From a virus (lineage: Duplodnaviria > Caudoviricetes), in IMG/VR virus record IMGVR_UViG_3300022173_000137, positions 449 through 64,448 of that record: a DNA stretch of 64,000 nt. One strand, written 5' to 3'. The position numbers and the translations under genes are program-made. The notes under the pieces were generated by a model. It saw only the letters and a list, made by a program, of their open reading frames with translations. It was not told the origin of the DNA and searched no databases. Positions 15,113 through 36,427 of the stretch are shown one piece after another (within the stretch, counting starts at the first letter, position 1; each line of letters begins with the position of its first letter).

Positions 15113-15139
15113 CACATAAACCCAAGTAAAAACCATCCC

Positions 15140-16117
15140 ATGAAGACAGCATTAAATGTAACATTCGGACTAATCATCGGACTCACCGCGTCGTGGCTCA
15201 TCGCCCGCGAAAACGGCATCAACTGGACTACAGCATTCATCTGCCTTGGCGGTGCCATCGCCATGTTTGTTCTGTGGGCCATCATCCGCTCATCGAAAGG
15301 CCGGAAGGCTGCAAGCAAGGTCATCGGGTGCGTGCTGGTCTCCAGCACGGCAGTGACGCCTGTGCTTCTCATTGCTGACGAGGGCGACACCTACGCGGGC
15401 TATACCGGCTCGTCGTGCTACTGCCTCGAACCTGGCGGTGGCGACGACCTCACTGCGGCGAGCGCGGGCGCACCCGAACCGGAAGTGCAGAACGCCGTGA
15501 TCCTGCACTTCGTCGTCGATGTCCCCAACGGCCCCATTCCGCTGGCCAACGACGCCACGCCGCGCATCGTGTCCGTGAGGCGCGCTGACCCCAGCAAGCT
15601 GGTAAGCTGGGCGGAGATTGCCTCGACCTTCGCTGGAGAAGGAATCGACCTCAACGCACAGAACACCACGCAATACGCGAAGAATGGACGGCGAGCAGAC
15701 CCATCCGAAGTGCCGTTCATTCTCAATCAGAGCATGACCGAGAAGTTCGTCTATCAACCGGATAAGGAACAATACAAGGTGATCGTCGAAACCACGTCCG
15801 AACTTGCCGGTGAGTTCACGGCTTGGAGCGCGGTCTCTCGCTTCTCCATCCCTGCAAACACGATGATTCAGTATCAGGATACGCCGGACGGCATCTCAGC
15901 GTTCTACCGTGTTCGCCTCGACACTCAACCGGCTGGCGAAGTGCAAGCCTCAGCAGGTGCCCTCGCCATTGGCTGTGGGCTTGGGCTGCTGGCTGGCGCT
16001 GCGTACGTCTGCGTGATGACCGTCCGAGCCTGTGCCAAAAACAAGAAGAAGTTCGAGGACATGAAGACGAACTCGGCTCCTTCACAGATTCAGTTCAACC
16101 TGGCCCCGGCCCATTGA
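15140..16117 (+). CDS. Membrane-anchored exported protein
   Basis: Three N-terminal hydrophobic segments, a soluble domain containing AFYRV, and a C-terminal TM. Codon use is more AT-rich than its neighbours. Confidence 0.7.
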   Translation: MKTALNVTFGLIIGLTASWLIARENGINWTTAFICLGGAIAMFVLWAIIRSSKGRKAASKVIGCVLVSSTAVTPVLLIADEGDTYAGYTGSSCYCLEPGGGDDLTAASAGAPEPEVQNAVILHFVVDVPNGPIPLANDATPRIVSVRRADPSKLVSWAEIASTFAGEGIDLNAQNTTQYAKNGRRADPSEVPFILNQSMTEKFVYQPDKEQYKVIVETTSELAGEFTAWSAVSRFSIPANTMIQYQDTPDGISAFYRVRLDTQPAGEVQASAGALAIGCGLGLLAGAAYVCVMTVRACAKNKKKFEDMKTNSAPSQIQFNLAPAH

Positions 16118-16713: not shown

Positions 16714-16784
16714 ACCGTAAACAGTTCGCTAAGGTCGTCAACACTAATGTTGACAAAGCGACGGTCGTCAACTATATTGTTTAA
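16714..16784. promoter_or_regulatory. Divergent sigma70-like promoters with two operator-like 18-mers
   Basis: GTCAAC-ACTAAT-GTTGAC (16737-16754) and GTCAAC-TATATT-GTTTAA (16767-16784). Plus strand TTGACA-17-TATATT; minus strand TTGACG-16-TACGGT. Confidence 0.7.
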
Positions 16785-16786
16785 CG

Positions 16787-18241
16787 ATGAAGAGCACAAA
16801 CTGGTTTGAAGTGGATCGAAAAGGGCTGGCCAAGCTCCTGTCCCGGCGCGGCAAAGAATTCATTCTGTACGAGCTGGTCTCGAACAGTTGGGATGAGCCT
16901 GGCGTGACCCGCGTGGACGTGACCGTGAAGCAGGTTCACGCGAACGTGGTGGAGATTACCGTGGAGGACGACGCGCCGCTGGGCTTCAGCAGCCTGGCCA
17001 ACGCCTTCACCCTGTTCGCCGAGAGCGGCAAGAAGAGCAACGCCACGCAGCGTGGACGCTTCAACCTGGGTGAGAAGCTGGTGCTCGCGGCCAGTGAGCA
17101 CGTCTGCATCTCCACCACCAAGGGCACGCTCTACTTCGACTCGGAAGGCCGGAGGGCGAGCAAGAACAAGCGGGAGACCGGCAGCAAGATCAGTTGCTGG
17201 GTCAAGGTGACCGAGCAGGAGTATCGCGACATGCTGGCCAAGGCCAACCTGCTCCTCCAGCACGAGAACATCGTGACCATCATCAACGGTGAACCTCTGG
17301 CTCCGCGCATCGCCATTGGCGCGACGATGGCCACGCTTCAAACGGAGATCGCCGATGCCGATGGATTTCTGCGCCGGTCCAATCGAACGACCACCATCGA
17401 AGCCTACCGGGTGCGCGACGGTGAGACGGCCATGATTTACGAGCTGGGCGTGCCGGTGTCTCCAACTGGTGACAAATGGCACTACAACATCAAGCAGAAG
17501 GTGCCGCTGGCCCTGGACCGTGCCGACATCCCTGCGGCGTTCGTGAAGGCCGTCCGCGTGGCCGTCTTCAGCATCCTGCACGACAAGCTCACCCCGGAGG
17601 ACGCCAACGCCGAATGGATCGAGGTCGCGGCCAACGACCCGCACTGCGACCAGGCCGCGATGAAGACCTACATGGAGCTGCGCTTCGGCGGAAAGCGCGT
17701 GAGCTATGACGCGTCCGACCCAGAGGCCAACAAGATTGCCACCAGCCAAGGCTACACCGTGGTGACCGGCTCCATGATGGGCAAGACGGCCTGGGCCAAT
17801 GCCAGGGAGGCCGAGGCCATCAAGCCTGCGGGCAAGGTGACGCCCAGCGCGAGAGTCTGGAGCGGTGAGGACGACCCGAACGCCCCAGCCTTCACCGACT
17901 GGATTCCTGAGTCCAGGTGGACCGAAGGCATGAGAGACATCGAAGGCTTTGCCCGGACGATGGCGATGAAGGTTCTGAACAAGGACATCGAGGTGAAGTT
18001 CTGTTCCACGCACCACCACAAGGCTGCTGCATCCTACGGCCCGTCCTGCGGGCTGGTCTTCAACAAGCTCAAGCTGGGCAACGCCTGGTTCGAGCGCGGC
18101 ATCAACCAGCAGGTCGTCGCGCTGCTCATCCACGAATTCGGACATGAGTATTCTTCGGACCATCTCAGCGAGGAGTATTACGAAGCTCTTTGCACCATCG
18201 GTGCGAAGATGTTCGACCTCGGAAAGCGCCAAGTCCTATGA
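16787..18241 (+). CDS. GHKL (HSP90/MutL-like) ATPase fused to a C-terminal zincin-like domain
   Basis: ELVSNSWD, VEDD...GF, RGRFNLGEK and T..G boxes; LLIHEFGH (HExxH) near the C-terminus. Confidence 0.8.
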   Translation: MKSTNWFEVDRKGLAKLLSRRGKEFILYELVSNSWDEPGVTRVDVTVKQVHANVVEITVEDDAPLGFSSLANAFTLFAESGKKSNATQRGRFNLGEKLVLAASEHVCISTTKGTLYFDSEGRRASKNKRETGSKISCWVKVTEQEYRDMLAKANLLLQHENIVTIINGEPLAPRIAIGATMATLQTEIADADGFLRRSNRTTTIEAYRVRDGETAMIYELGVPVSPTGDKWHYNIKQKVPLALDRADIPAAFVKAVRVAVFSILHDKLTPEDANAEWIEVAANDPHCDQAAMKTYMELRFGGKRVSYDASDPEANKIATSQGYTVVTGSMMGKTAWANAREAEAIKPAGKVTPSARVWSGEDDPNAPAFTDWIPESRWTEGMRDIEGFARTMAMKVLNKDIEVKFCSTHHHKAAASYGPSCGLVFNKLKLGNAWFERGINQQVVALLIHEFGHEYSSDHLSEEYYEALCTIGAKMFDLGKRQVL

Positions 18242-19278
18242 CCTTCAGCCGCATCAGCGACTACTTTGTCTCCGAGCGCGAGCGTGTCCTGGAGAAGCTG
18301 CCGCGCATCCAGCCTCTGGTGGAACCCAAGCGCATTCAGACGCCTGCCGGTTACGACTCAGCTCACGGCATTGGCCCGGCCACCTACCTGATGAGCCAGC
18401 AGTATCGGCTGACCCGTCGAGAAGGTGGGCAGCCACTGGAGCTGGCCGGAGTCGCCATCGCCTACGAGATGGTGAGATACCAGATGCCTGTCTTCTACGT
18501 CTCCGAGGCGCTGGCCCGTGCTGCTGCCGCCACGAAGCTTCCTTCCGACTTCCTGATGAGCGAGATGCGCTGGCCGATGCTGGCGCTCGTGCTGGGCTTC
18601 CCAACGAAGTTCATGCGCGAATACGCCGACCTGGACAGCAGCTACGTCTGGTGTTCCAGCCTGGAAGCCAAGGGCTACCCGGCTCCCAACGGCATCGTCG
18701 GCCCCATCATCGAACCCGCCTTCGCCAAGGTGTCGCTGCAATACTACCAGCTCCATCAGGAGAGCGGTCAGCCAGAGATATTCGTCGGGTCGTTCCCAAT
18801 TCACGAGCAGGTCAATGACGTGGTGCGGCGCTACAGCTACACGGACCATACGGAGGCCAAGGACGTGGACGTGCTCAAGGAGCGCCTGCACATGGTCGCC
18901 AGTCTCGTCTTCAAGGTGCTGCTCATCCTGAGCGCCCGCGAAGGACTGATCAGGATGGGAGAGTGTGTACGGCCGCGCAGCGAGAAGAAGGGCAAGGTGC
19001 GTGAGGCGCTTTGGGCACCAAACTTCATCGGCGTCGGCTATCGGACGATGCGCCAGGGCGCGACCGGCGAAGGCACGTCCGTCTCAACGCACTGGCGTCG
19101 TGGCCACATGACCTGGCAGGTAACTGGCAGCCGGGAGGACTTTGTGCCTGTGTCCTCCCTGCCGCGTGACGAGGAGGGCGGCATCAGGTGGACCGAGGTA
19201 TCAGATGATACCAAGGACAAGTTCATGCGGTCGCACCGCCGCATCTGGATTGACCCCGTTCTGGTTGGAAGTTTATGA
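18238..19278 (+). CDS. Phage hypothetical protein with a C-terminal HWRRGH...WI.P..VG motif
   Basis: ATGA overlap start MTFSRIS; this motif recurs in phage proteins. Confidence 0.7.
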   Translation: MTFSRISDYFVSERERVLEKLPRIQPLVEPKRIQTPAGYDSAHGIGPATYLMSQQYRLTRREGGQPLELAGVAIAYEMVRYQMPVFYVSEALARAAAATKLPSDFLMSEMRWPMLALVLGFPTKFMREYADLDSSYVWCSSLEAKGYPAPNGIVGPIIEPAFAKVSLQYYQLHQESGQPEIFVGSFPIHEQVNDVVRRYSYTDHTEAKDVDVLKERLHMVASLVFKVLLILSAREGLIRMGECVRPRSEKKGKVREALWAPNFIGVGYRTMRQGATGEGTSVSTHWRRGHMTWQVTGSREDFVPVSSLPRDEEGGIRWTEVSDDTKDKFMRSHRRIWIDPVLVGSL

Positions 19279-22860: not shown

Positions 22861-22878
22861 GTCAACAGTATAGTTTAC
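22861..22878. promoter_or_regulatory. Operator-like GTCAAC-AGTATA-GTTTAC, overlapping a minus-strand -10 (TATACT)
   Basis: Read directly. Confidence 0.55.
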
Positions 22879-23485: not shown

Positions 23486-23920
23486 ATGAAACCGACGAGT
23501 CAACGGGCGTACACGCAAGTTATGGCCAGCGGCCTGGTCACCGGCCTGCGCTGGAAGGTCTATCAGACGCTCCACTACGCCCCGGCGCTCACCGCCAACG
23601 AAGTCGCACAAAACCCTGTCTTCCGTGGCCACCAGCTCGACAGCATCCGCCCACGCTTCGCCGAGCTGGAGAGCCTGGGTGTCATCCGTTCCAGCGGCAG
23701 TCGCGAATGCTCGGTGACGAGGATGACTGCGCTGCTCTGGGAGACGACGGACTACGTGCCGACCAAGGCCGACGTGAAGCCAAAGACGCGCACCTTCTGG
23801 CTGGTGAAGGCTCCGGGGAAGATCGGAAAGGTGTTCGAGCACGAGGAGAATGCAGCCAAGGCAATGAAGGACGGAGCAGAGCTGATCGAGGTGCGGGAGG
23901 TGGTGCGGAAGACGAAGTGA
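23486..23920 (+). CDS. Winged-helix DNA-binding protein
   Basis: LTANEVA...SIRPRFAELESLGVI..SG.R.C..T wHTH pattern; start within track ORF 23075..23920. Confidence 0.7.
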   Translation: MKPTSQRAYTQVMASGLVTGLRWKVYQTLHYAPALTANEVAQNPVFRGHQLDSIRPRFAELESLGVIRSSGSRECSVTRMTALLWETTDYVPTKADVKPKTRTFWLVKAPGKIGKVFEHEENAAKAMKDGAELIEVREVVRKTK

Positions 23921-23934
23921 ACAATACTGTTGAC
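23917..23934. promoter_or_regulatory. Operator-like GTGAAC-AATACT-GTTGAC upstream of the helicase-repeat gene
   Basis: Read directly. Confidence 0.5.
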
Positions 23935-23985
23935 CGCCATGTTGGTATTATCGCAAACGAGACATAAAAGCAGTTCTCCTATGCC

Positions 23986-26802
23986 ATGACCGACTGTGTT
24001 GAGAAAACCAGCTTCAGGATTGAGACGGAGTATCGGACAGGCTGGAATAAGCTGGAGAACTTCGCACCTCGAAAGCCGGGAGGAGCCTACACGCTTCTTC
24101 AGTGGCAGGACGAAGCTCGCATCAAGCTTGAGCACGCACACTGGTGGCTGGTGGACGCACCGCCCGGCGCGGGCAAGTCATGCCTGATCTGCTGCCTGGC
24201 TGCCATCAGCCTCAATCTAAACCCAAAGCTGCGCGCCATCATCGCGGTTCCGCAGAACCTCATCGGAAGCAGTTTCGGGCCTAAGCGGCTTAACGTGCCG
24301 GGCGTTGGCGTTGTCGCCTGGGGAACGAATCACGACCTTTGCGGCAAGGGCACAAATAAAGCCGATGCCTTACTGAACTTCCTTCAGAAGCCGCGACGAA
24401 ACATGCTGGAGGACCGGGTGCTCGTCTGCACGCACTCCACCCTGGTTGCCGCGTTTAAGGCGTGCAGAGAGGCGTTCAAGGACGTAACGCTCGTGGTCGA
24501 TGAGGCTCACCACGTTGCCTACGGGGAGACCGCCGAAGAGCGTGAAGTGGTGAACGGAGTCGGCACGGTCATTCAATGGGCCATGAGCAGGCCGGACATC
24601 CAGATTGGCCTCACCACTGCGACGTTCTGGAGAGGCGACAGGTTTCCGATCATACCAAAGAAGCACCTCGACCGCTTCAAGAGATACAACCTGTCCCACC
24701 CAGACTATCTCGCGTGCTGCAAGCACCTGAGAAGCATCGGCTACGACTTCATCCTCTACCGCAGAACCTACTACGAGGCGCTGTGCGGACTGCTCGACAG
24801 ATACCACACCAGCAAGCTGATCATCTACATCCCGCCTGTTGGCAGCCACTGCTCACTGGGCAGCAAGGAAATCGACGTGACTGCGGTCATCAAGGCCATC
24901 GCTGGAACTGAAAAGCCGGTGGTGCGAGACCGCAGCAGGGCTGTCATGCGCGTCATGCGCGGCGATGTTGAACTCAGAGTAATCAATCTAGTTGACGAGG
25001 ATCTGCGAGACGAGAAGAAGAAAGCAATCGAGGAGGCACACAGTCACGTCAACAGCCAAACGCTGGACGTGGTGATCGCGCTGAATATGTTTCGCGAGGG
25101 CGGCAACTGGATGTGGGCTGACCGGGAGATTATCATCGGCCCGCGAAACTCACTGACGGACATGGTTCAAACGGTCGGCAGAGTCCTTCGCGACGCCAAA
25201 GGAAAGCCACACGCACAGATTCATCATGTGCTGCCAACTGGGCCTCTCACGTCTGATGACCGCACGAAACAAAATCTAAACGACTACGTAACCTCGCTGT
25301 TCGCGTCGATGATCATGGGGGATATGTTCAACCCGGTGCGGCTGAGCACGCCGGTCATCTCAGTTCCAGAGGGGGTTGCACTCACACCTGAGCGTACAAG
25401 CCCTGCACTACGACTATTTTCCGATGCTTACGAGGCACTCAGTTTTTGCCACAGCGTCTGGTGTGAGATGCGGCTAGACGACCGCAACGCACTTGGCACT
25501 GATGCACGGCCAGAGCTTGAGAAAGCTGTCACTGAAGTAATGCGACAACTTGGAAAGACTGAATTTAGAGACGAGATTGTAGCATACCTCTGGAAACTTC
25601 TGACGACACAGACGTTGCAGGCGTCTAGGCTGAACGTGACTGATATTGGTTTCAAGATGCTACATGATCATCCGTTCGGTTTCATGCTTGGTTACACCAG
25701 CGGAGTGTTTGGAATAGACCGATGGAGGCAGCTCAAGGAGGCACTGGTGTCTCGTGAATCATGGACAAAAGAGAAGGTGATTGCCAGCGCCAAGCCGTTC
25801 AAGAATATAAGTCGCTGGGCGGGCGCGCACCCGTGTGCTTACAACGCCGCTTTGGCCAACAATTGGCATGAGGAGGCGACAGCCCACATGACTAGAATGC
25901 TTCAGTCATGGACAAAAGAGAAGGTGATTGCCAGCGCCAAGCCGTTCAAAACCAAGAAGGAATGGAGGAAGCATTGTAGCAGCGCGTTCGATGCGGCCAG
26001 GCATAATGAATGGTATTTCGAGGCAACAGCACACATGCGCAATGTTGTTCATTACTGGACTAAAGAAGAAGTCGTTGCCTCTGCCAAAAGGCACAGCGTT
26101 CTCAGTCGCTGGATCGATGTAGATTTTGGAGCTTATAGGGCAGCAAGACGCCACAAGTGGTTGATAGAGGCGACAGCCCACATGACCCGGCTACGAGGTC
26201 AATGGACAAAAGAGAAGGTGATTGCCAGCGCCAAGCCGTTCAAAATCAGGAGATGCTGGGCTGCAAGGAATGGATCAGCCTATCAGGCAGCTAGACGAGA
26301 AGGGTGGTTGGAAGAGGCGACAGCCCACATGCGAAAGAGAAAGGAACAGTGGACGAAGGAGAGAGTGATTGCCAGCGCCAAGCTGTTCAAGTCCTTATCT
26401 ACATGGGAGCAGTCGTACCCAGGCGCTCGTAACGCATCAAGACGCCACGGATGGACTGAGGAGGCGACAGCCCACATGACTAGAATGCTTCAGTCATGGA
26501 CAAAAGAGAAGGTGATTGCCAGCGCCAAGCCGTTCAAAACCAAGAAGCCTTGGATCAAAAGATACTCAGGGGCGTGTCAGGCAGCTAGACGAGAAGGGTG
26601 GTTGGAAGAGGCGACAGCCCACATGGATAAAACAGAGAGATGGACAAAGGAGCGTGTGGTTGTCCGCGCCAAACATTTTAAGTCCATGTCACCTTGGATT
26701 AAAAAATACCCTGGAGCTTACGAAGCGGCAAAAAAGGCGGGGTGGCTGGCAGAGGCGACAGCCCACATGGAGAAACGCAAAAATAATGCGCAGCTACGTT
26801 GA
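23986..26802 (+). CDS. SF2 (DEAH, restriction-Res-like) helicase with a C-terminal array of seven ~49-aa repeats
   Basis: APPGAGKS (I), IIAVP (Ia), VCTH (Ib), VVDEAHH (II), TATFWRGD (III), NMFREG (V), QTVGRVLRD (VI). The 3' half is more AT-rich than the rest of the window. Confidence 0.85.
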   Translation: MTDCVEKTSFRIETEYRTGWNKLENFAPRKPGGAYTLLQWQDEARIKLEHAHWWLVDAPPGAGKSCLICCLAAISLNLNPKLRAIIAVPQNLIGSSFGPKRLNVPGVGVVAWGTNHDLCGKGTNKADALLNFLQKPRRNMLEDRVLVCTHSTLVAAFKACREAFKDVTLVVDEAHHVAYGETAEEREVVNGVGTVIQWAMSRPDIQIGLTTATFWRGDRFPIIPKKHLDRFKRYNLSHPDYLACCKHLRSIGYDFILYRRTYYEALCGLLDRYHTSKLIIYIPPVGSHCSLGSKEIDVTAVIKAIAGTEKPVVRDRSRAVMRVMRGDVELRVINLVDEDLRDEKKKAIEEAHSHVNSQTLDVVIALNMFREGGNWMWADREIIIGPRNSLTDMVQTVGRVLRDAKGKPHAQIHHVLPTGPLTSDDRTKQNLNDYVTSLFASMIMGDMFNPVRLSTPVISVPEGVALTPERTSPALRLFSDAYEALSFCHSVWCEMRLDDRNALGTDARPELEKAVTEVMRQLGKTEFRDEIVAYLWKLLTTQTLQASRLNVTDIGFKMLHDHPFGFMLGYTSGVFGIDRWRQLKEALVSRESWTKEKVIASAKPFKNISRWAGAHPCAYNAALANNWHEEATAHMTRMLQSWTKEKVIASAKPFKTKKEWRKHCSSAFDAARHNEWYFEATAHMRNVVHYWTKEEVVASAKRHSVLSRWIDVDFGAYRAARRHKWLIEATAHMTRLRGQWTKEKVIASAKPFKIRRCWAARNGSAYQAARREGWLEEATAHMRKRKEQWTKERVIASAKLFKSLSTWEQSYPGARNASRRHGWTEEATAHMTRMLQSWTKEKVIASAKPFKTKKPWIKRYSGACQAARREGWLEEATAHMDKTERWTKERVVVRAKHFKSMSPWIKKYPGAYEAAKKAGWLAEATAHMEKRKNNAQLR
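25759..26769 (+). repeat. Seven tandem coding repeats, 147-bp period (last spacing 144)
   Basis: Trp codons at 25762, 25909, 26056, 26203, 26350, 26497 and 26641. GAGGCGACAGCCCACATG is identical in 6 of 7 units. Confidence 0.95.
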
Positions 26803-27415
26803 CACCAAGAAGTCGAAGGCCCGCTACAAGACGGTGGTGATGCCGTGCTGGAACCGTTTGCAGGCACTTTCAATTCCTGCGGACAGGCAGTACTGGACGC
26901 TGTGCGCCGAGAACTACGACGAGGACTTCAACCTGCTCGACTCCTGCGAGCTTCATCAGATGCTCTCGCTGGGCCTCCTGAAGTCTGCCGACCAGTTCCA
27001 CGGTGTTGACCGCAACGAGACGATAATCGCAGGCAACCGCAGGGCCGTCCCGGAGGCACACTGGCACTGCGAGGATCTGTATCAGGCGATGGTGAACGCG
27101 AGCGTGGCTGGCAACTTCCGGCCCGCCGTCGTCAACTACGACTCGCTCGATATGCCAGAGTCAGCCTGCGCCTACCTGCCCAGGTTGATGTCTCTCCTAT
27201 CCGACCACAGCTCGGTGGTTCTCGTCGCGAACATCATCCTGAAGACTCGCTACCATAAGTCGTCCATCAGGGAGATCGGGGATCGGCTGAGCAAGAGCCG
27301 TCACTTTCAGCAGGTGTTCGACAACGGCTGGCAGTTCGACGAGAAGGCTTACCAGTATTCAGGGACGGGCAAGCGCGGCACCTGGATGGGGTCACTGGTC
27401 TTCCACCGGCCTTGA
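26786..27415 (+). CDS. Class I SAM-dependent methyltransferase-like protein
   Basis: Start MRSYVDT overlaps the end of the helicase gene. FHGVDRN (acidic residue after a strand) and AVVNYD (motif IV-like); no clear GxG motif I. Confidence 0.5.
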   Translation: MRSYVDTKKSKARYKTVVMPCWNRLQALSIPADRQYWTLCAENYDEDFNLLDSCELHQMLSLGLLKSADQFHGVDRNETIIAGNRRAVPEAHWHCEDLYQAMVNASVAGNFRPAVVNYDSLDMPESACAYLPRLMSLLSDHSSVVLVANIILKTRYHKSSIREIGDRLSKSRHFQQVFDNGWQFDEKAYQYSGTGKRGTWMGSLVFHRP

Positions 27416-27643: not shown

Positions 27644-27678
27644 AAAACAAAACCCGCCCCAGTTGCCTGGAGCGGGTT
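27644..27678 (-). terminator. Intrinsic terminator of the major capsid gene
   Basis: AACCCGC...GCGGGTT stem followed by TTGTTTT on the minus strand. Confidence 0.75.
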
Positions 27679-27703
27679 CGTGCGAAGGGTCAGAGCGAAA
27701 CGC

Positions 27704-29167
27704 TTAGCCGATGGTCTGGCCGAACGCCGTGGGGCTGTTCTGGACCAGGCCGCGACTGAACATTTTGGAATTGATCATTTTGCGGGCGAACGAACTCGCG
27801 AAACCCCTCTGGTGGAGGAAGTCAGGCAGAATGATGTCGGGGGTTGTGTATAATTTTTGATATTCCGCCAGGACGTAGCCCGTGGTCAGGAACTCATCGC
27901 CCTTGTGACCGACCAACCACTCGTTGACCGGGTAGTGCGGATCAGCAAACACCTTCTTGTTGCCGAGGTCACCGATGTAGGTGATGCCCTGCATGTTAGT
28001 GCGATTATTCTTCGAGACGAACTGCGGCAGCGTGGCCACCACGGTCGCGGCTTGCAGGCCCAGGAGGAGCCAGTTGCCAGAGACCATGTTCGTCGCACCA
28101 AAGATGAAGTTCGAGGCAGTCTCGAACGCGTCGATGATGGAGAACTTGTGCGTCTGGTAGTTCACGGAGGTAGGAGCAATCGCATCCCAGACCACGAAGC
28201 CAGCGTCCGCCTTGGCGCGCAGATCGAAGATCACCTGGCGGTGCTTCTGATACTGGAGCGCATTGGTGAGCGCATTGAGCAGAACGCTTTCGGCCTTGAT
28301 GTTGTACATCGCCTGGAGGTTCTGATCCGCTTCCTCAGACCACACGGTCTTGAGCTTGATGACCTTCGCCGTCACCGGAGTGGACGAGAGGCGCATTTCG
28401 TAGTCCTGGATGGCCAGGTTGCCTTCAGAGTTGAAGACATACGACAGGGAGACCGCCGCAGCCGTCTGCGAGGCCACCGTGATGCGTCCGACGTTCGTGC
28501 CGGAGTAGATGATGGTGCCGACCACCGCATTGGTGGACGCGTTGAGCACGTTGCCGTTGCCGTCATCGACGACGGAGATGGAGCCGTAGGTGCCGGACAG
28601 GGTGCCAGCGCGAATCGGAGTCCACTCCAGGGTGACGATGCCGCCGCCATCAGAGGTCGCGGATTCGTCCTGGATGAGTTCATCCGAGTCATCGTCACGG
28701 TCCACAGCGCCCTGCAATGCGCGCCACATCGGCGAACCGGCAGGAGTGCGGCCTTTACGACGACCAGTCACGATGTCCATGTACACGATCTGGCTCACCG
28801 GGCCAGCCATCGGTTGGAGAGCGACGAGCTGATCAATCACGTCGTTCTCGCTCATGTTCGCGATGACGGGGAAGATCCACTTGTCGAACGTACCCAGGCT
28901 GCTGGTGCGCGTCACTTCGTCGAGACGACCGAAGCGGGCGCGGCAGTTTTCGAGCATGATCGCGGCAATGGGGCGCTTGTGTTCGGGCATGTGCTCCACG
29001 AACTCCTTCCAGCCGCGAGCTTCCCAGAGACCCTTGGCGTGGCTGTCAGGCAGCCCGACCGGAGTCTCAGCGAGGCGATGGCCCCACTCGTAGATTTCGG
29101 TGAAACGGTTGATGTGTCCGCCCTCCGATGCGATCATCGGGCGTCCATTTTCATGTAGGATTACCAT
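27704..29167 (-). CDS. Major capsid protein (T4 gp23-like, HK97 fold)
   Basis: 487 aa; A.MLEN, FPVI, VALQPMAGPVSQI.Y, V.AK..KLK..WSEEA.QNL.AMY; follows the protease and ends at a strong terminator. Confidence 0.9.
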   Translation of the reverse strand: MVILHENGRPMIASEGGHINRFTEIYEWGHRLAETPVGLPDSHAKGLWEARGWKEFVEHMPEHKRPIAAIMLENCRARFGRLDEVTRTSSLGTFDKWIFPVIANMSENDVIDQLVALQPMAGPVSQIVYMDIVTGRRKGRTPAGSPMWRALQGAVDRDDDSDELIQDESATSDGGGIVTLEWTPIRAGTLSGTYGSISVVDDGNGNVLNASTNAVVGTIIYSGTNVGRITVASQTAAAVSLSYVFNSEGNLAIQDYEMRLSSTPVTAKVIKLKTVWSEEADQNLQAMYNIKAESVLLNALTNALQYQKHRQVIFDLRAKADAGFVVWDAIAPTSVNYQTHKFSIIDAFETASNFIFGATNMVSGNWLLLGLQAATVVATLPQFVSKNNRTNMQGITYIGDLGNKKVFADPHYPVNEWLVGHKGDEFLTTGYVLAEYQKLYTTPDIILPDFLHQRGFASSFARKMINSKMFSRGLVQNSPTAFGQTIG

Positions 29168-29215: not shown

Positions 29216-30796
29216 TTACTTGGTGGCGGGGGTGCTCCAACGGCGCACCATATTGATGGATTCGTTGACGTTGCTCGCACCGCCAAAGGAGGTGCTTTCA
29301 ACAATGGTTCCCTGCTTCTTCGCTTCGGGCTTCTTGCCTTCCTCGACCTTGGCTTCGACCTTCGCCTCTTTGGACTCGGTGACAGCCTTGACGGGCGCGG
29401 CGGGCTTCTTGCCTTCCTCGACCTTGGGTTCGGGCTTGAGTGCTTCCTTTGAGCCTTCGAGCTTCTCGCGGATGGCGACGATGTGGCGGAGGCGGGTGGC
29501 TTCCTTGAGCATCTTGGCGATTTCAGGTGCCTGGGCCTTCTCAGCGAACTCCAGGACGATGATGCGACGGCCCATCTCGGTGAGATCGGCATGGTAGCGT
29601 GCGGCCATGATGTCCAGGGCTTCGCAGGCAGTGTCGAAATGCTTGTCGGTCTTCTTGAGCTTGACCTCGCGGGATTCCGCCAGGTGCTTCCAGCCCTTGC
29701 CGCGCTTGGTCAGCTCCTCGACGAGCTTGCCGTTTTCGGCATTGAGCTTCATCGACTCGCCGAGCTTGGCCTTGTAGGCGACGCCGGTCTTGCCGACCGC
29801 AGCGATGACCTTCATCAGCTTCACGTTGTCTTCCGTGAGCTTGGTGGCGCGCTTGGCCGGTGCAGTGACGGATTCGTTCCACTGCTGGGCGATGGAATCG
29901 ACCTCGTTGTGGAGCTTCTGGCCTTCCCAGGAACGCTTGGCGTCCTCAGAGATGTAAACGGCGATGTCCTGGTGGATGCTTTCCATCAGGCCCATGCCTT
30001 CGGAAAACCGCGTCGGGTCGAGCTTGGTGTGATTCAAGCCGCGCAGCGCCGCGATTCGGTTGCGGATGTCTTTGATGTCGTATGGCATAACTTTTTGTTC
30101 TGTGATGGATTGAACTTCGGTGACCGCCGCTGGCTTGGCGGGTTGGGGAGGAGTGATTGTCTGGGCGGACTCAACCACGACCTTCTGGTCGCGGATGGTA
30201 GTGGCCTCGGCGGTGACGACGGTGCGGTCGGGAGTCAGTTCCGCCGTTTCAAAGCTGGGCTTGATGACGACATCGAAGGACTCGCAGACGTAATCTTCCT
30301 GCACCACGTCGATGCCCTGGGCGTCCTTGACGAGCGAGCCGTAGCCACGGCTGGAGACGAGCGGGTTGTAACCGGCCTCAATCAGCGCACCCAGCTTTGC
30401 GCCTTCAGGCGTGCTGAGCAGGGTGATTTCGCCGAAGACCTCATAGACCTTCTTGCCGGTGGCATCGACGCTCTCCTGCATTCTTGCGCCGGTAACGAGG
30501 TGGGAGATGGGGGAGAGAAGAGTGACAATGCCGTCCTTGGGGTGTTCGAGGAGGCCGAACGCTGCGTTTTTCTTGATGGAATCGACCAGCAGCGAGCCAG
30601 GGGCGAGATTCTTTTCCCAGATGGACCGGCTGTACGTCCGGCCATTGCCATTGACGCAATCGCACACGGAGAAGCGTCCAGGGATTTTCGTGCAGACCAC
30701 TCCGTTGGGTCGGCTCTCTGTGACAAATGACTTGGTGCGGTCAACGATGAAGGGGAAGGCTCCCGTTGCTCCCTCGATAAGAAGTTGTTTGGCCAT
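29216..30796 (-). CDS. Prohead protease (T4 gp21-like) fused to a C-terminal coiled-coil scaffold-like region
   Basis: NGNGRTYS, GLLEHP, ISH, LLSTPEG, VSSRGYGS, FDVV..PS in the first ~190 aa, then a Lys/Glu/Ala coil. Confidence 0.88.
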   Translation of the reverse strand: MAKQLLIEGATGAFPFIVDRTKSFVTESRPNGVVCTKIPGRFSVCDCVNGNGRTYSRSIWEKNLAPGSLLVDSIKKNAAFGLLEHPKDGIVTLLSPISHLVTGARMQESVDATGKKVYEVFGEITLLSTPEGAKLGALIEAGYNPLVSSRGYGSLVKDAQGIDVVQEDYVCESFDVVIKPSFETAELTPDRTVVTAEATTIRDQKVVVESAQTITPPQPAKPAAVTEVQSITEQKVMPYDIKDIRNRIAALRGLNHTKLDPTRFSEGMGLMESIHQDIAVYISEDAKRSWEGQKLHNEVDSIAQQWNESVTAPAKRATKLTEDNVKLMKVIAAVGKTGVAYKAKLGESMKLNAENGKLVEELTKRGKGWKHLAESREVKLKKTDKHFDTACEALDIMAARYHADLTEMGRRIIVLEFAEKAQAPEIAKMLKEATRLRHIVAIREKLEGSKEALKPEPKVEEGKKPAAPVKAVTESKEAKVEAKVEEGKKPEAKKQGTIVESTSFGGASNVNESINMVRRWSTPATK

Positions 30797-32098: not shown

Positions 32099-35000
32099 TC
32101 ACGCGGCCCGCAGGAGCGCATCCCAGTCCGGCGAGCTGCCCTTAATCTTCCGCATGTTCAAGTAGTTCAACCCTACTTCCGCGTCACCGGCAAATGGAAC
32201 GATCATCCAGGACGTGTCGTAGTCTGGTCCAAAGAACGCCTTGAAGACGCCCGCGAAGTCGTTGAGCACGGTCATCACGATTTCGTGAACCTTCGGCAGC
32301 TCGGCTTGCACCGCATCGATCATCAGCGAGTCGTGAACGGTGGAGACCAGGAGTGACTCCAGCCCTTCCTGGCGCATGAGGTCTTCGATGACGATGAGGG
32401 CCAGGAGCATCATGTCCGAGGCCGTCGATTGAATCAGGTGGTTGTAACCGGCGCGCAGGCACTTTGAGATGGCCTCCTCGTCTCCGCCGAAGACCTCCTG
32501 GAAGATGCGGACGCGTCCGAAGATGGAGAGCGCCACGCCGTTGTCCAAGATGAACTGCTTGTAACGCTGGATGTGTCGGCGCAGGGACGGGTACGCATCG
32601 AAGAAGGCGTTGATGATGTCTTCGCACTCTTCGAGGGACTTGTAGATGCCGTTGTTCGCGAGCGTGGTCTGAAGGCCGAAGGCACCGCCGCCGTAGCCTG
32701 TGAGGAAGTTGGTGGTCTTGCCGACCTGGCGCTGCTCTTCCAGAGCCTTGGCCTCCACTTCGCGGCCTCTCTTTTGCAGGCTCTCCATGTGATCCTTGGA
32801 GAAGTGCTCGTAGGGCACACCGAAAATGAGGCTCGTGGTCTGCGAATGCAGATCGATGTCATTCAGATAGGCATTTACCATTGACGAGTCTCCGCAGGCC
32901 GCAGCCAGCAGGCGCAGCTCGATCTGCGACAAGTCCGCCGAGTAAATGCAGCCGCGTTTGCCGAAGCGCGAGACGTAGATGGACTTCACCTCGCCTTTAC
33001 GCGGCAACTGCTGGAGGTTCGGGTTGGAGGAGCTGAGACGACCGCCGCGTGTTCCAGTCAGGTTGAAGTTCGCGTGGACGCAGCCGTCTGGCCGCAGATG
33101 CTGGTTAGGCCCGCCGTAAATGAGGCGCTCCGGGCCTTCACCGTCGTTTGTCAGAGTCGCCAGCGGCCTGATGAACGCCGTCCACAGCTTGTAGAGCTTG
33201 CGATATTTCTGGAGCGGGCGGACCTGTGGATGATCCACGGACATGCCGTTGAGCGTGAACTTGTCCACCGCCGCGAAGGTCAGGAGCTGCTCGCGGGTGA
33301 TGTTGTGCTCCTTCCAGTCGGCCTTCGTCTCGCCAAAGAGAATGCGGCCCTTCTTGGTCAGGCGTGTAACGGGCAGGTTGAGGCCAGCGTCCGCGTCGAA
33401 GAGGATCGTCTTTAACTGGGTCTTGTCCTCCAGGTCCAGTTCCCACTTCTGGTCAGTGTTCGCCTGCTCTTCACACCAGGCTCCGATGCGCGGGTCACTG
33501 GCCTTGAACTCATTGATCTGGGCCGTGATCTTGTCGGGGTAGTCCAGGAAGAGGTGCTTGAGCGCCTTCTGGTCCACGTAGAGGCCACGGCCCATCAGCT
33601 TGGTCAGCACGCGGGAGGACGGCACCATGATGCTGCGGTAAACCCAGTCACGGCGCGGAGGATGGAACGTGTGGAACGTGCCCAGGTGTCCGGGGCGTGC
33701 AATTGGGAAGGCATACTCCTTGGCCGTATCGAGCTTCTTCTGAATCGCCGTGCTCGCCTCCCAGACGACCTCCACGTCGCCCATGACGTACGGTTTGAGG
33801 TGCGTGTCCCACACTTTGCGGTCGCACGCGGCGTAATGCCCACCCTTGCCTGCCGCTGGGTCGAGCTTCTCGGAGTCCAGCTCGATGAGCATGACCATTT
33901 CCTCCTCGTATCCCGCCAGACCAGGGGCGTAGTCGTAGGCAATGGCCTCCAAGCCGAGGGAGCCACGCTGCTGCTTGAACGTGTAGGCCATGTGCTGCGT
34001 ATCGGCCCACATGGAGTCGGCGAGCCAGTCGAGGACGGCACCGGGCACGACGCCGCTCGTGTAGAGCATGTCGAAGGAGAGGTTGTGGCCGATGGTCCGG
34101 GACTGGTAGAGCGCGTCGAGCACCATCGGGGAGAGCCGGTTGATGTACCGGCGCACGCCGCTGGTCTTGAAGTCCCAGGGGAACCCGATGGAACGCGGCT
34201 TCCCGTCGTGCATCCAGCGCATCATCATAAAGACGATGGCCGCGTCATCGGACTGCGGGCGCAGGCCGGTGGTTTCCGTGTCGTAGGCCAGGATGCGCTG
34301 CGGCTCCTTCATTATCTCGCGCATCGCCGCCTCGATCTCGTCCGGGTCTTCCGTGATGCGATACCAGGGCCGGATGTAGGTGGGCGCGACGATGCCCTCA
34401 CGGGCAGCCTTCAGCGCGTTGGCCAGTTGCAGCACCCACGCCTTGATGATGTCCGGGTTCTGCGTGCCGTAGATCATGCGCGGCACCTGGAGCGGGATCA
34501 TCGGCATCCGTACACCCACGGGCGGCGCACCAAAGAGCGGATGGCCCACGATGTCCGGCATCGTCTCGACCGGGTGCTTTCGAGGCCACACAAACGCCTG
34601 GTTGGTGAGCCAGTCATCCGGCCAGCCGCGCCAGTTGAGCAGGCGACCGCCCCACTCCTGCGCGTTGCTCTTGTGGGAGAGCGCGCCCAGCGCCGTGGTG
34701 CCAATCGGCATGACGAGCTTGGGCGGGAAACGGCGCAGATCATCGACCAGATGGTTGCGGCACCAGTTGCCCTTGGACTTGTAGTTGGTGACCAGATCGC
34801 CCGCGCAGCGCGTGAGCGGCACCCAGCGGATGTCCTTCAGGGTGATCCCGGTCACCGACTCCAGCTCGCGGATGGTGTTGCGCAGGGTGTTCATCGCGCC
34901 GCCCACCAGCATGTCGTTCATCTGGTCCGCCTTCTGAGTAACGGAGTCAACGATAATGGTTACCAAGGGCGCGTTGCTGCCCCTGGGGCCGAAGAAAGGG

Positions 35001-35293
35001 TTGTCGTTTCCCTCGTGAAGCTGGCATTTCCCGCAGAACGGATTGGCCAGTCCAGGCACCAGCGCCTTGCCCGTGTCGGGATTGGCCGGGTCATAAATGA
35101 CGCGCCGCTCGAACTTGCCAGGTTTTATCTCCACCTTCTGAATCCCATCCCGGTGCGCCACGGCATCGCGGTAATACTTCTGAATGGTCTTCACCTTGGA
35201 CATCGCCATCGGCTTGTCTCCAGGCTGGGCGTCCGGCAGGTAAAACTTAATCGGGGATGGCCTGGATGCGGGCGTCTCGGTCTGCGTTGTCAT
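32099..35293 (-). CDS. polA: DNA polymerase family A with an N-terminal UDG-like Fe-S domain and a 3'-5' exonuclease
   Basis: CGKC...RC..C N-terminal domain; YDTETTGL exo I; LSSSNPNLQQLP, ADLSQIELR (A), R..GKTTNF..GYG (B), NHLIQSTASD, VHDS (C). Confidence 0.95.
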   Translation of the reverse strand: MTTQTETPASRPSPIKFYLPDAQPGDKPMAMSKVKTIQKYYRDAVAHRDGIQKVEIKPGKFERRVIYDPANPDTGKALVPGLANPFCGKCQLHEGNDNPFFGPRGSNAPLVTIIVDSVTQKADQMNDMLVGGAMNTLRNTIRELESVTGITLKDIRWVPLTRCAGDLVTNYKSKGNWCRNHLVDDLRRFPPKLVMPIGTTALGALSHKSNAQEWGGRLLNWRGWPDDWLTNQAFVWPRKHPVETMPDIVGHPLFGAPPVGVRMPMIPLQVPRMIYGTQNPDIIKAWVLQLANALKAAREGIVAPTYIRPWYRITEDPDEIEAAMREIMKEPQRILAYDTETTGLRPQSDDAAIVFMMMRWMHDGKPRSIGFPWDFKTSGVRRYINRLSPMVLDALYQSRTIGHNLSFDMLYTSGVVPGAVLDWLADSMWADTQHMAYTFKQQRGSLGLEAIAYDYAPGLAGYEEEMVMLIELDSEKLDPAAGKGGHYAACDRKVWDTHLKPYVMGDVEVVWEASTAIQKKLDTAKEYAFPIARPGHLGTFHTFHPPRRDWVYRSIMVPSSRVLTKLMGRGLYVDQKALKHLFLDYPDKITAQINEFKASDPRIGAWCEEQANTDQKWELDLEDKTQLKTILFDADAGLNLPVTRLTKKGRILFGETKADWKEHNITREQLLTFAAVDKFTLNGMSVDHPQVRPLQKYRKLYKLWTAFIRPLATLTNDGEGPERLIYGGPNQHLRPDGCVHANFNLTGTRGGRLSSSNPNLQQLPRKGEVKSIYVSRFGKRGCIYSADLSQIELRLLAAACGDSSMVNAYLNDIDLHSQTTSLIFGVPYEHFSKDHMESLQKRGREVEAKALEEQRQVGKTTNFLTGYGGGAFGLQTTLANNGIYKSLEECEDIINAFFDAYPSLRRHIQRYKQFILDNGVALSIFGRVRIFQEVFGGDEEAISKCLRAGYNHLIQSTASDMMLLALIVIEDLMRQEGLESLLVSTVHDSLMIDAVQAELPKVHEIVMTVLNDFAGVFKAFFGPDYDTSWMIVPFAGDAEVGLNYLNMRKIKGSSPDWDALLRAA

Positions 35294-35320
35294 GCTCCTC
35301 AAGAACTGTTCTCAAGAGCG
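35294..35320. promoter_or_regulatory. Back-to-back GTTCT(T/C)-N7-ATG motifs in a 27-bp divergent gap
   Basis: CAT-gctcctc-AAGAAC-t-GTTCTC-aagagcg-ATG. Confidence 0.7.
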
Positions 35321-36427
35321 ATGATTCTGGCCGATCAAAAACCCGTGGCGAAGAAGACGCCCATGCTCTGCTTTGGCATCGACCAAAACCTCAGCACGGT
35401 CACCTGCCGCAACTGCCTCCACAAAATGGAGTGCTTTAATGCGATGGGCAGGCGGGTCCGGCAGCGGTCCTTGGGCGCGGCGGAGTTCGCCTTTGTCCCT
35501 GAACAGTTCAAGGTGCCAAAGGACAAGCCGACCCTGAACTACGCACGGCACATCTATGGCCACTGCTACAGCACGGTGTATGGCCGGTTCCCTGACAGCG
35601 GCGACACAATTGGGTCCAACTTTGAGGCCATCGAAGCGCAGCGCGCCAAGGTCGGATGCTCGCTGAAGATTTACATCATCGCCTGCATGTTGGCGCACCG
35701 GGACAACCAGAAGCGGCTGATCGACTTCGACCAGCGCGACGTGGAGGTGGTGTTCCGCGCCAGCGGCCTGGCCAGCCCGCACCTGCTTAACGATGTGCTG
35801 CTCCTCAAGAAGCTGTGCCTGCGCGAATACGGGACATTTGACGTGGTGTCCGTCACGGCGATGACCGACATCGAGTGCGCGCACGACGACCTGGCACGGC
35901 GGCTCCTTGCCAGCGAGATGCTGGCGGGAGAGTTCATCATCCAGTGGAAACAGACGCACAAGGGCGAGCCTTGGGCCGCGCTGTTCGACGCCCACGAGGC
36001 TGACCTCGACGTGGACTGGCTGGCCATTGAGGAGTGCTACACCAAACGGATCAGGCCCGTGACAACCAAGAAGGTCATGCGCGATGACGGCCAGATCGTG
36101 GAGGTGAAGATTGCAGGCCAAGAATTGAAGGTGCCGGAGAAGATCCGCAAGGTGCGCTACGCGGTGAACCAGCGCACTGGAATCCTGAAGCGGCGCAACA
36201 TGCTGGCCCTTGGTGCATTCACGACCCGCGAGCACGTCATGTCCATCGCCATTCGCCGCGTGCTGTCCAAATGGCACCTGGAGCCGGACGATTTTGAGAT
36301 CAATTACGAGGCCGAGAAGGGCAGGCCGCTGATGATTTGGTATTGGTTAGGCATCGCCATCCAGCACGTCCACATGATTTGGGCACTGGAAGGCAAACCT
36401 TCACAGTTCTCTGACTTCACAATCTGA
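35321..36427 (+). CDS. Uncharacterized protein coupled to the replicative helicase
   Basis: Start MILADQK within track ORF 33554..36427; N-terminal CFG...CRNC...C cluster; TGATG overlap with the helicase gene. Confidence 0.7.
   Translation: MILADQKPVAKKTPMLCFGIDQNLSTVTCRNCLHKMECFNAMGRRVRQRSLGAAEFAFVPEQFKVPKDKPTLNYARHIYGHCYSTVYGRFPDSGDTIGSNFEAIEAQRAKVGCSLKIYIIACMLAHRDNQKRLIDFDQRDVEVVFRASGLASPHLLNDVLLLKKLCLREYGTFDVVSVTAMTDIECAHDDLARRLLASEMLAGEFIIQWKQTHKGEPWAALFDAHEADLDVDWLAIEECYTKRIRPVTTKKVMRDDGQIVEVKIAGQELKVPEKIRKVRYAVNQRTGILKRRNMLALGAFTTREHVMSIAIRRVLSKWHLEPDDFEINYEAEKGRPLMIWYWLGIAIQHVHMIWALEGKPSQFSDFTI

Follow-up and report, generated by a model that had tools for sequence, protein, structure and literature searches.

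A viral SF2 helicase fused to a basic repeat array and followed by a methyltransferase-fold gene

Introduction

Phage homing nucleases are known to carry small reader domains in tandem, and we know of no study of the role of such domains on helicases. TALE units, another kind of tandem reader, are 33–35 aa long and near-identical, carry two hypervariable residues and build a rigid continuous superhelix. For the HA and INT_rpt domains, to our knowledge, no function has been experimentally defined. In phages, beads-on-a-string DNA-binding arrays recombine within homing-endonuclease genes (Barth et al. 2023, PMC10448857), and in the CapR, DUF723 and DUF4379 zinc fingers of T5orf172 HEGs intragenic repeat recombination alters the number of units (PMC10448857).

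The locus analysed in this work lies in a 64,000-nucleotide stretch of viral DNA (the window). Similarly to the HEG zinc-finger arrays, it has tandem, putatively independently folding modules joined by linkers on a phage DNA enzyme, modules exchanged between genes and degenerate nucleotide repeats, and orthologous helicases have DUF4379 fingers at the C-terminal position that the array takes here. In contrast to those arrays, its unit is all-helical, cysteine-free and unrelated in sequence, the carrier is a helicase and not a nuclease, and DNA binding is putative. The unit is shared with GIY-YIG phage proteins, whose PHROG 20046 units give 23–33% array identity in tblastn (examples are QIG67925.1 of Rhizobium phage RHph_Y60, several genes of Vibrio phage PVA23, and Burkholderia phage BcepSauron). 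In those proteins, however, the units flank a nuclease, usually with several copies per genome, whereas here they follow a helicase and occur in a single array in the 64-kb record, which has no GIY-YIG gene. Helicases with HA domains (PF03457) or INT_rpt (PF14882) arrays also combine an SF2 motor with C-terminal tandem helical domains of ~50–60 aa, but the present unit matches neither family profile. Finally, Type I, III and ISP enzymes (LlaGI/LlaBIII, 5ffj/4xqk) likewise couple an SF2 motor genetically to a methyltransferase-fold protein, and LlaGI/LlaBIII match the present helicase weakly over motif VI (E 0.012); unlike in these enzymes, neither a nuclease domain nor a catalytic motif of DNA methyltransferases was found here, and the locus likewise showed no target-recognition domain, S subunit or match at the level of family.

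Results

The features of the locus are collected in Table 1. A complete DEAH SF2 motif set, which an earlier note on this DNA had claimed, can be read in the helicase (Walker A APPGAGKS, DEAHH, TATF and QTVGRVLR), and these motifs are invariant in 15 homologues. With motifs I, II and III and an arginine-finger motif VI, which SF2 helicases have in two RecA-like domains, the core belongs to SF2. It matches phrog_16 with an E value of 8.5e-12, and the Pfam families DEAD, ResIII and Helicase_C score slightly under their curated cut-offs in the 938-aa protein and over them in its homologues. The core alignment contains 49 invariant columns and stops at residues 572–592 in 29 of the 34 homologues. 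No characterised close relative of the core was found by PDB sequence or phage protein searches: the former returned motif-level SF2 matches only (LlaGI/LlaBIII, then XPB/Brr2), and the latter just two distant records. A DNA-level search of GenBank phages with the gene region gave no match, nor did a scan of viral contigs with a single protein; the alignment-based scan of viral contigs gave 13 loci, with the full core in L002, L003 and L014 only. PADLOC and NCBIfam yielded generic helicase-motif matches and no real PADLOC match, the weak generic matches over motif VI being to LlaGI, LlaBIII, PbeA and the dnd restriction helicase. Neither the helicase nor its partner contains a nuclease family according to Pfam, PHROGs, NCBIfam and PADLOC, although helicase residues 420–592, which have no assigned fold, might in principle hide a cryptic nuclease. 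GC content is 0.53 over 25–27 kb compared with 0.56–0.67 elsewhere in the window. The GC3 of the helicase gene falls from ~0.75 to ~0.55 from codon ~450 to the gene end, other genes averaging 0.81, and the lower GC previously ascribed to this gene is found over its 3' 1.5 kb.

Table 1. Coordinates of the features at the helicase locus (positions in the window)
Feature	Position	Strand	Basis or remark
Conserved 144-aa ORF, directly upstream of helicase	23486..23920	+	L015 match
Operator-like palindrome GTGAAC-N6-GTTGAC before helicase gene	23917..23934	.	one mismatch to window motif
SF2 (DEAH) helicase gene	23986-26802	+	938 aa ORF
SF2 (DEAH) helicase core, residues 1-592	23986..25761	+	motifs, phrog_16, 34 homologues
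Seven-unit array, basic, predicted three-helix, 49 aa (once 48 aa)	25762..26799	+	phrog_20046, AF2
91-nt exact block, unit 1/2 junction	25869..25959	+	= 26457-26547, unit 5/6 junction
49-nt exact block, unit 4 tail	26283..26331	+	= 26577-26625, unit 6 tail
209-aa gene, predicted class-I SAM-methyltransferase fold	26786..27415	+	13 homologues, AF2, Foldseek, VIA
Terminator-like hairpin	27650..27679	-	between convergent methyltransferase-fold and major capsid genes
Major capsid gene	27704-29167	-	convergent with methyltransferase-fold gene

The units of the array, whose number and order are as assembled in a metagenome contig and so subject to assembly error, start at nt 25762, 25909, 26056, 26203, 26350, 26497 and 26641, with five spacings of 147 nt followed by one of 144. 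They are mutually 47–65% identical, with ~25 variable positions, and across all seven 17 of the 49 columns are invariant and 32 variable. The two copies of the 91-nt exact block are offset by four units and those of the 49-nt block by two; a head block of 42–44 nt is identical in units 1, 2, 4 and 6, and GAGGCGACAGCCCACATG is found in six of the seven units. The earlier note had reported seven units at a 147-nt period, exact repeats at multiples of this period, a block shared by the same four units and this sequence in six of them, and had described the units as mosaics; our analysis agrees on every one of these points, and the mosaicism fits intragenic recombination or gene conversion. The pattern shows units that duplicate in place, with gene conversion homogenising their heads and tails. 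Between units pN/pS is 0.31–0.63, reaching 0.63 in the variable middle, where synonymous sites are saturated (pS 0.77). As these ratios are below 1, they give no indication that selection diversifies the units. In the 64-kb record we found no further copy of the unit, no GIY-YIG gene and no iteron-like DNA array that the protein array could read.

The AF2 model of the array has a pLDDT of 91.2 and a pTM of 0.40, with values above 90 for the units and of 71–87 for the linker blocks, and places helices at residues 3–10, 16–22, 24–32 and 36–39 of the unit. The array is predicted to consist of independent three-helix beads on flexible ~10-residue linkers, a Class V 'beads-on-a-string' arrangement. 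Its pI is 10.4 and its net charge +40, single units contributing +3 to +8. In the family of the unit, position 6 changes together with position 39 (C/C versus V/A), in agreement with how the helices pack in the model. Comparison of the model with solved structures gave no Foldseek match at E<=0.001, and the best score of a VIA-wide search was Z 3.5, with Sda, FF domains and YqeY at Z 2–3, the noise level. The array shares with TALE repeats tandem helical units, a conserved scaffold with variable positions and recombination-prone DNA; its units, however, are 49 aa long and predicted to be separate beads. A TALE-like array had been suggested for this locus, but the 47–65% identity, the ~25 variable positions, the bead model with its pTM of 0.40 and the pN/pS below 1 all speak against it.

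The array matches PHROG 20046 in three stretches (E 3e-43). A profile of the unit found 5,019 cluster representatives at E<=1e-3, of which a cut-off of E<=1e-30 leaves 545, and the arrays reach 17 units. Among the top 150 matches, 53 are pure arrays and 85 have another segment, which is GIY-YIG in 53 of these 85 proteins, a helicase in ~6, HNH in one and an REase domain in one. The earlier note had mentioned similar repeats on GIY-YIG nucleases, and these counts bear it out. In a second census of 92 unit proteins, GIY-YIG accounts for about a quarter and SF2 helicases for about a fifth, and the partners also include Vsr-like, DUF723, NUMOD1 and I-HmuI-NUMOD. Cultured phages of Vibrio, Burkholderia and Rhizobium also have the unit, mostly in multiple copies and annotated as hypothetical protein or GIY-YIG nuclease. 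About 18 helicases from another SF2 clade bear the WTKE...AHM unit as well, through an independent fusion. Pfam gave no match to the unit at E<=10, INT_rpt and HA included, and hhalign of the unit against INT_rpt gave a probability of 1.4%. By the latter comparison the WTKE unit and INT_rpt are unrelated; HA was compared with Pfam only. PF26058.1 appears in the precomputed annotations of eight array proteins, one of them a pure array; this accession has no entry in the Pfam release searched and no literature match.

What occupies this position in the relatives of the helicase? The 29 homologues that share the end point of the core differ beyond it: 21 carry extensions of 197–552 aa with differing repeat families, among them INT_rpt, HA, DUF4379 zinc fingers and unnamed ones (HA in P0019; INT_rpt in P0006, P0009 and P0012; true orthologues). 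In L016 and L018 the array is a separate gene. Unit number, which was to be compared among relatives, varies within the clade (7, 6, 5 and 1), and the arrays of clade members lack colinear orthology between units. Our comparison shows that between lineages the whole array has been exchanged for repeat families unrelated to it or has become a gene of its own.

Homologues confirm that the 209-aa partner begins at the ATG at 26786, which gives an overlap of 17 nt with the helicase stop. The overlapping methyltransferase-like ORF noticed earlier is a gene, and at the level of fold its likeness to methyltransferases holds in AF2, Foldseek and VIA. The AF2 model (pLDDT 88, pTM 0.87) is predicted to have the seven-stranded class-I SAM-methyltransferase fold. 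Among the Foldseek PDB matches listed, all are methyltransferases or methyltransferase-fold proteins, and VIA places next to it RlmI-like, Trm5b, RsmD and RlmCD (Z 12.7–13.4, rmsd 3.2–3.5 Å, 163–173 residues). Overall, the proteins closest to it in structure include methyltransferases for RNA, for proteins and for small molecules, whose scores differ by less than one Z unit, and therefore the fold does not fix the substrate. Pfam, PHROG, NCBIfam and PADLOC assign it to no family, and a phage protein search gave no match. The glycine-rich motif I (GxGxG) is absent, the loop after strand 1 reading L-C-A/G/S/N followed by a variable insert, and SAM binding is consequently not assured. A GV(D/E) at residue 75 is kept in 13 of 13 sequences, D119 never varies and D97 hardly does; the acidic residue 75 may be the ribose contact at the end of strand 2, and D97 and D119 the SAM-contact positions after strands 3 and 4. 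Motif IV reads N-x-D-S...M-P and not (D/N/S)PP(Y/F), there are no C5-type motifs, and the protein is a bare catalytic fold that lacks a target-recognition domain, with no S-like gene nearby. The linkage of helicase and partner, a point raised earlier for homologues, is present in every full-core relative examined: the partner lies downstream of the helicase in seven of seven (L015, L002, L003, L014, L016, L018 and L027), directly 3' of it in five, with array or small genes in between in the other two, L016 and L018.

Upstream, the 144-aa ORF has a counterpart in the matching place of the syntenic relative L015, with 61% identity over 144 aa; the ORF of the window has no Pfam match and looks winged-helix-like by eye. 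Exact matches to the motif GTCAAC-N6-GTTKAM number 7 (0 expected) and fall on 5 window sites, two of which are palindromes matched on both strands. No Rfam family was found in the window, and at 36427-37890 the phage, large and uncultured, has a DnaB-like replicative helicase of its own. The location of the module next to capsid and replication genes is constant among phages with helicases of no more than 32–49% identity, and this constancy in diverged phages suggests a core function rather than an accessory island.

Discussion

We propose, with a probability of about 0.6, that an accessory phage SF2 motor, a basic bead array and the methyltransferase-fold partner form a core module beside the capsid genes, and not a defence island. 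In this proposal a conserved motor of ~590 residues is fused to seven small, strongly basic modules, each probably of three helices, which would be one kind of the interchangeable small 'reader' domains that phages put on DNA-acting enzymes, chiefly GIY-YIG homing-type nucleases. The repeat module most likely binds nucleic acid, probably DNA, to judge by its association with DNA enzymes and its charge. Through many weak contacts the array would hold the motor on its substrate or guide it there, and the partner may act on the same substrate as the helicase. Because a methyltransferase-shaped gene always follows, the helicase resembles a targeted DNA motor more than it does a restriction system or TALE-like reader.

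A bolder version, which we regard as unlikely, unites motor, array and partner in a single machine that would share the logic of the Type I/III enzymes but have no nuclease, and in which the beads would bring the helicase and its dedicated methyltransferase to chosen phage or host sequences and be re-aimed by unit shuffling or array swap.

SF2 DEAH motors can also act on RNA. The motor might accordingly remodel phage transcripts, tRNA or rRNA, with beads that bind RNA and a partner that is an RNA methyltransferase. The best structural neighbours of the partner (RlmI-like, Trm5b, RsmD and RlmCD, Z 12.7–13.4) point in this direction, the solved-structure profile search touches Brr2 as well as XPB, and highly basic beads would take RNA as readily as DNA. 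However, the other carriers of the unit are nearly all DNA enzymes (GIY-YIG, Vsr-like, HNH, REase and NUMOD-bearing), and the tie among the fold neighbours of the partner extends to protein and small-molecule methyltransferases; we think an RNA-directed pair rather improbable.

The earlier note had read the locus as restriction-like, with a reshufflable array used against host DNA or competing phages. Such a nuclease-bearing or DNA-degrading system would have its target set by the array, and the methyltransferase would protect self DNA. The tight linkage of helicase and methyltransferase-fold gene, a unit typical of site-directed nucleases, the mosaic blocks left by recombination within the array and the weak generic matches over motif VI are all in keeping with it. 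This role is nevertheless unsupported, because searches of helicase and partner revealed neither a nuclease domain or motif nor a DNA-methyltransferase motif (the motif IV or C5-type motifs), and no specificity subunit was found. The partner, moreover, has no target-recognition domain or family match and is closest in structure to methyltransferases that act on RNA, proteins or small molecules, PADLOC gives no real match, unit pN/pS is 0.31–0.63, and the module is a syntenic core element at a fixed site beside capsid and replication genes, with helicases 32–49% identical; we consider restriction very doubtful.

FF domains are protein-binding three-helix modules, and a protein-interaction or scaffold tail, for example one recruiting the motor to a replication or packaging complex while its variability is neutral turnover, would agree with the missing array fold match to a known DNA-binding domain (Foldseek, VIA), with the FF domains that recur among weak VIA rows (Z 2.1–2.9) and with the lack of a positive-selection signal between units, but it is made very unlikely by the net charge of +40 and pI of 10.4, by the consistent presence of the unit on DNA-finding enzymes, alongside NUMOD1, I-HmuI-NUMOD and DUF723/CapR-type fingers, and by the zinc fingers (DUF4379) and HA domains held in the same slot of orthologous helicases.

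What would a targeted DNA motor with exchangeable beads mean for these phages? The unit is abundant (thousands of protein clusters, cultured phages included), yet it is without function, solved structure or family in the Pfam release searched. If it binds without sequence preference, the array would be an ordinary processivity tether; if its DNA recognition is readable, it would offer a new scaffold for modular DNA binding; and if the one-machine reading is true, it would be a natural modular addressing of a DNA motor, not described before. One orthologous motor holds at least five unrelated repeat families in one slot, fused or detached, and such exchangeable arrays next to a constant methyltransferase-fold neighbour make a testable case that phages may use such modules to direct a helicase, and possibly also a modifying enzyme, to DNA.

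Results

The helicase protein of 938 residues carries a full set of SF2 motifs (APPGAGKS, DEAHH, TATF and QTVGRVLR), and from residue 593 onwards it consists of seven units, spaced by 147 nt five times and then by 144 nt, their count and order being those of an assembled metagenome contig. Seventeen of the 49 unit columns are invariant (W1, T2, K3, E4, V6, A10, K11, W19, A26, A29, W35 and E38-M43), GAGGCGACAGCCCACATG is present in six of the seven units, and a head block of 42-44 nt is common to units 1, 2, 4 and 6. Every exact block claimed in the earlier note was found.

Positions of the helicase module, its repeat units and neighbouring features in the window
Feature	Position	Strand	Remark
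SF2 helicase gene	23986-26802	+	
Starts of units 1 to 7	25762, 25909, 26056, 26203, 26350, 26497, 26641	+	
Exact 91-nt block	25869-25959 and 26457-26547		four-unit offset
Exact 49-nt block	26283-26331 and 26577-26625		two-unit offset
ATG of the 209-aa partner gene	26786		17-nt overlap with the helicase stop
T4-type major capsid protein	27704-29167	minus	
Prohead protease	29216-30796	minus	
Family-A DNA polymerase	32099-35302	minus	
DnaB-like replicative helicase	36427-37890		
SbcC-like protein			
UDG-family protein			
InPase-domain protein			
GTCAAC-N6-GTTKAM, exact sites	14771-14788, 16737-16754, 16767-16784, 22861-22878, 38711-38728		
GTCAAC-N6-GTTKAM, one mismatch	23917-23934		directly upstream of the helicase gene
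GTTCTC, read in the sequence	within 23969-23985		7 nt upstream of the helicase ATG
AT-rich short tandem repeat GCGTATAAAGTAAAGC	15068-15120		2.3 copies; inside intergenic gap 14563-15140
GHKL-type ATPase gene, then 362-aa gene	16787-19278		ATPase: weak HATPase_c match

Pairwise comparison of the units gave a pS of 0.46 and a pN/pS of 0.31 for the heads (codons 1-14), 0.77 and 0.63 for the middles (codons 15-34), and 0.30 and 0.44 for the tails (codons 35-43). The middles are old and saturated at synonymous sites, and the heads and tails have been homogenised, as expected from gene conversion or unequal exchange through the conserved ends; there was no sign of diversifying selection among the seven units (pN/pS 0.31-0.63). 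The earlier proposal that the units are mosaics made by intragenic recombination is borne out by unit 6, a plain mosaic with the head of unit 2 and the tail of unit 4, and by the junction of units 1 and 2, which is copied at that of units 5 and 6. The units of the window array resemble one another (49-77%) more than they resemble those of related arrays (37-63%), and no colinear orthology joins the window array to the others, so arrays expand and become homogenised within a lineage.

The GC content drops to 0.53 over 25-27 kb of the window. Third-position GC falls from about 0.75 to about 0.55 between codon ~450 and the helicase stop (0.46-0.68 across 25330-26802), while fifteen other genes average 0.81; this fall suggests that the 3' 1.5 kb of the gene derives from a lower-GC source. 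Because this drop begins about 140 codons ahead of the first repeat, the entire C-terminal third of the helicase may be foreign and of lower-GC origin.

The helicase core is shared by 34 homologues, and in 29 of them the alignment ends at query residues 572-592; beyond this point the protein extends by 197-552 residues in 21 of the 29 and by at most 53 residues in seven. These extensions are tandem repeats of differing families: INT_rpt in the homologues P0006, P0009, P0012 and P0017, HA domains in P0019, DUF4379 zinc fingers together with INT_rpt in P0021, an unnamed unit of about 55 aa in P0004 and at locus L002 (the latter also with HA-like units), and another unnamed unit of about 62 aa at locus L014. 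Profile comparison found the window unit to be unrelated to INT_rpt (probability 1.4%). In the closest relative (P0003, at locus L015), which is 49% identical and fully syntenic, INT_rpt-like units occur together with just one terminal unit of the window family; P0093 (37% identical) joins five window-family units to one INT_rpt-like unit. At locus L018 (37.5% identical) six window-family units lie in a separate 333-aa gene that starts within an INT_rpt-like unit and has an ATGA overlap with the helicase gene (L018:4340-4580); a fused gene that split recently, a frameshift or an error in sequencing could each account for this boundary. The unit number that the earlier note had asked to compare among relatives thus varies within the clade (one, five and six, with seven in the window), and the order is not colinear. 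Another SF2 clade, more compact, includes about 18 helicases with 3-11 window-family units each, so the fusion of unit and helicase arose more than once.

The five-unit helicase P0093 was found letter for letter on the L027 and L028 contigs, from runs SRR13838932 and SRR13838930, which hints weakly that arrays of this kind can stay stable from one sample to the next. At locus L016, too, the array, here of DUF4379, is encoded by a gene of its own; Hint/intein-splicing domains occur there in genes that flank the helicase module (L016:1722-2483 and 7543-8142), in one case within an RNA ligase, and this neighbourhood is rich in selfish elements.

The overlap of the helicase gene with a methyltransferase-like ORF was confirmed, and alignment of homologues shows the ATG to be the true start of the 209-aa gene. 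A longer TTG-started ORF from 26516 was rejected, as it is the repeats translated out of frame. The partner has 13 homologues and no named family among those searched. The AlphaFold2 model built on the alignment of these homologues (pLDDT 88, pTM 0.87) bears out, as regards the fold, the label methyltransferase-like given in the earlier note: the Foldseek PDB matches listed are all methyltransferases or methyltransferase-fold proteins, VIA-align gave Z 12.7-13.4 to RlmI-like, Trm5b, RsmD and RlmCD enzymes over 153-173 residues, and the ESM Atlas holds large virus-only clusters of this shape. The expected acidic residues following strands 2, 3 and 4 (D/E75, D97 and D119) are conserved, L-C-(A/G/S/N) stands in place of the glycine-rich loop that would follow strand 1, and in the homologue alignment motif IV does not match the type of DNA amino-methyltransferases. 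That helicase and partner form a pair directed at RNA is an unlikely reading.

The linkage of the two genes, as proposed earlier, extends to homologues: a partner homologue lies downstream of the helicase at seven loci, directly after it in five (L015, L002, L003, L014 and L027), while in L016 and L018 the array or small genes come in between. It is absent from ten loci whose helicase matches only residues 51-450, and on one JGI contig a partner homologue is followed by a 650-aa gene and INT_rpt proteins. The linkage is strong.

An AlphaFold2 model of residues 593-938, from an alignment of 30 arrays, had a mean pLDDT of 91.2 and a pTM of 0.40. Each unit is predicted to form three helices (positions 3-10, 16-22 and 24-32) plus a short one (36-39), and in the stretches of about 10 residues between units the confidence falls to 71-87. 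As local confidence is high and global confidence low, the model describes beads that fold independently and are joined by flexible linkers rather than packed into a solenoid. Structure searches with the array and with a single bead returned no resembling solved structure. Among 300 sampled family units (proteins P0036-P0185), positions 6 and 39 co-vary, Cys39 occurring in 66% of units with Cys at position 6 vs 11% of the others, which fits a predicted contact of the first and last helices; H42-M43 is conserved at 95-98%. Most family proteins have cysteines at both positions, and this type could hold a disulfide or a metal, which the window type cannot: with V6 and A39, the window array needs neither cysteine nor metal. 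The array has a pI of 10.4 and a net charge of +40, with +3 to +8 per unit. Variation among the seven units falls at positions 12, 15-18, 20-25, 27-28, 31-34 and 36-37, which are also the least conserved family-wide and are placed on helices 2 and 3. Neither the divergence of the units nor the predicted bead architecture supports the TALE-like array that had been suggested, and we consider it improbable that the array is a tail for protein interactions.

No family for the unit was found in the Pfam version searched (even at E<=10), NCBIfam or PADLOC; in PHROGs it falls in phrog_20046 ("unknown function", E 3e-43). Searching 1.84 billion cluster representatives with a profile built from the seven units gave 5,019 matching proteins at E<=1e-3, of which 545 reached E<=1e-30. 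The best 150 of the 5,019 carry arrays of 4-17 units; 53 are pure arrays, and among the 85 with another segment of at least 70 residues, 53 combine the array with a GIY-YIG domain inside or next to it, roughly six are SF2 helicases, and HNH and REase domains occur once each. The link of similar repeats to GIY-YIG nucleases, made in the earlier note, is therefore right. In a second census, which covered 92 array proteins (515-1,642 residues), about one quarter had GIY-YIG and about one fifth SF2 helicase domains, some carriers were JGI-named very-short-patch-repair endonuclease, and the unit co-occurred with DUF723, NUMOD1 and I-HmuI-NUMOD-like modules. Precomputed annotation placed PF26058.1 on eight of the 92 (P0203, P0205, P0209, P0220, P0228, P0239, P0262 and P0271), one of them a pure array; this entry was neither in the Pfam version searched nor found in a literature search, and the unit may already be catalogued in the newest Pfam. 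Cultured phages also carry the unit, in up to eight places per genome in 247-kb Vibrio phages, in 6-9 places in Rhizobium phages, and in the Burkholderia phages BcepSauron and BcepSaruman, the proteins being annotated as hypothetical or "GIY-YIG nuclease domain-containing protein".

The window is nearly the entire 64,448-nt IMG/VR record, for which CheckV gives a completeness of about 28%, and its gene set places the helicase gene in a large uncultured tailed phage that already owns a replicative helicase. In the window, L015 and L018 the helicase/partner pair is convergent with the capsid gene at its end, and a conserved 144-aa ORF (61% identical) precedes the pair in the window and L015. The pseudo-palindrome GTCAAC-N6-GTTKAM gave seven exact matches at five sites vs none in 100 shuffles; all sites lie at gene heads, and it looks like a common operator or promoter element. 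At the position that corresponds to the 362-aa gene, precomputed annotation flags an L015 gene as AcrVA2-like.

Discussion

The helicase-array feature is real and had been well described in the earlier note. Our analysis establishes that the motor is conserved, that its slot is filled by interchangeable arrays of beads, that a methyltransferase-fold gene is its constant neighbour, that the array recombines within the gene, and that the unit is associated with DNA enzymes. The restriction-like system first proposed for it is improbable, since Pfam, PHROGs, NCBIfam and PADLOC revealed no nuclease family, a DNA-methyltransferase motif and a specificity subunit are absent, and the module resembles a set of core genes in its behaviour.

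Two known kinds are matched here, SF2 helicases that carry small tandem domains at the C terminus and phage enzymes that bear bead-like reader arrays. To our knowledge, neither the exchange of one array for a non-homologous one on an orthologous motor nor an obligate methyltransferase-fold partner of such a helicase has been described. We propose, with a probability of about 0.6, that the beads bind nucleic acid, most likely DNA, that the array would tether or direct the motor, and that the partner would act on the motor's substrate. The nearest precedent is found in phage homing-endonuclease genes, in which zinc-finger beads are repeated, the repeats recombine and exchange, and specificity emerges from the set (PMC10448857). 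We think that the same bead logic holds here for a helicase.
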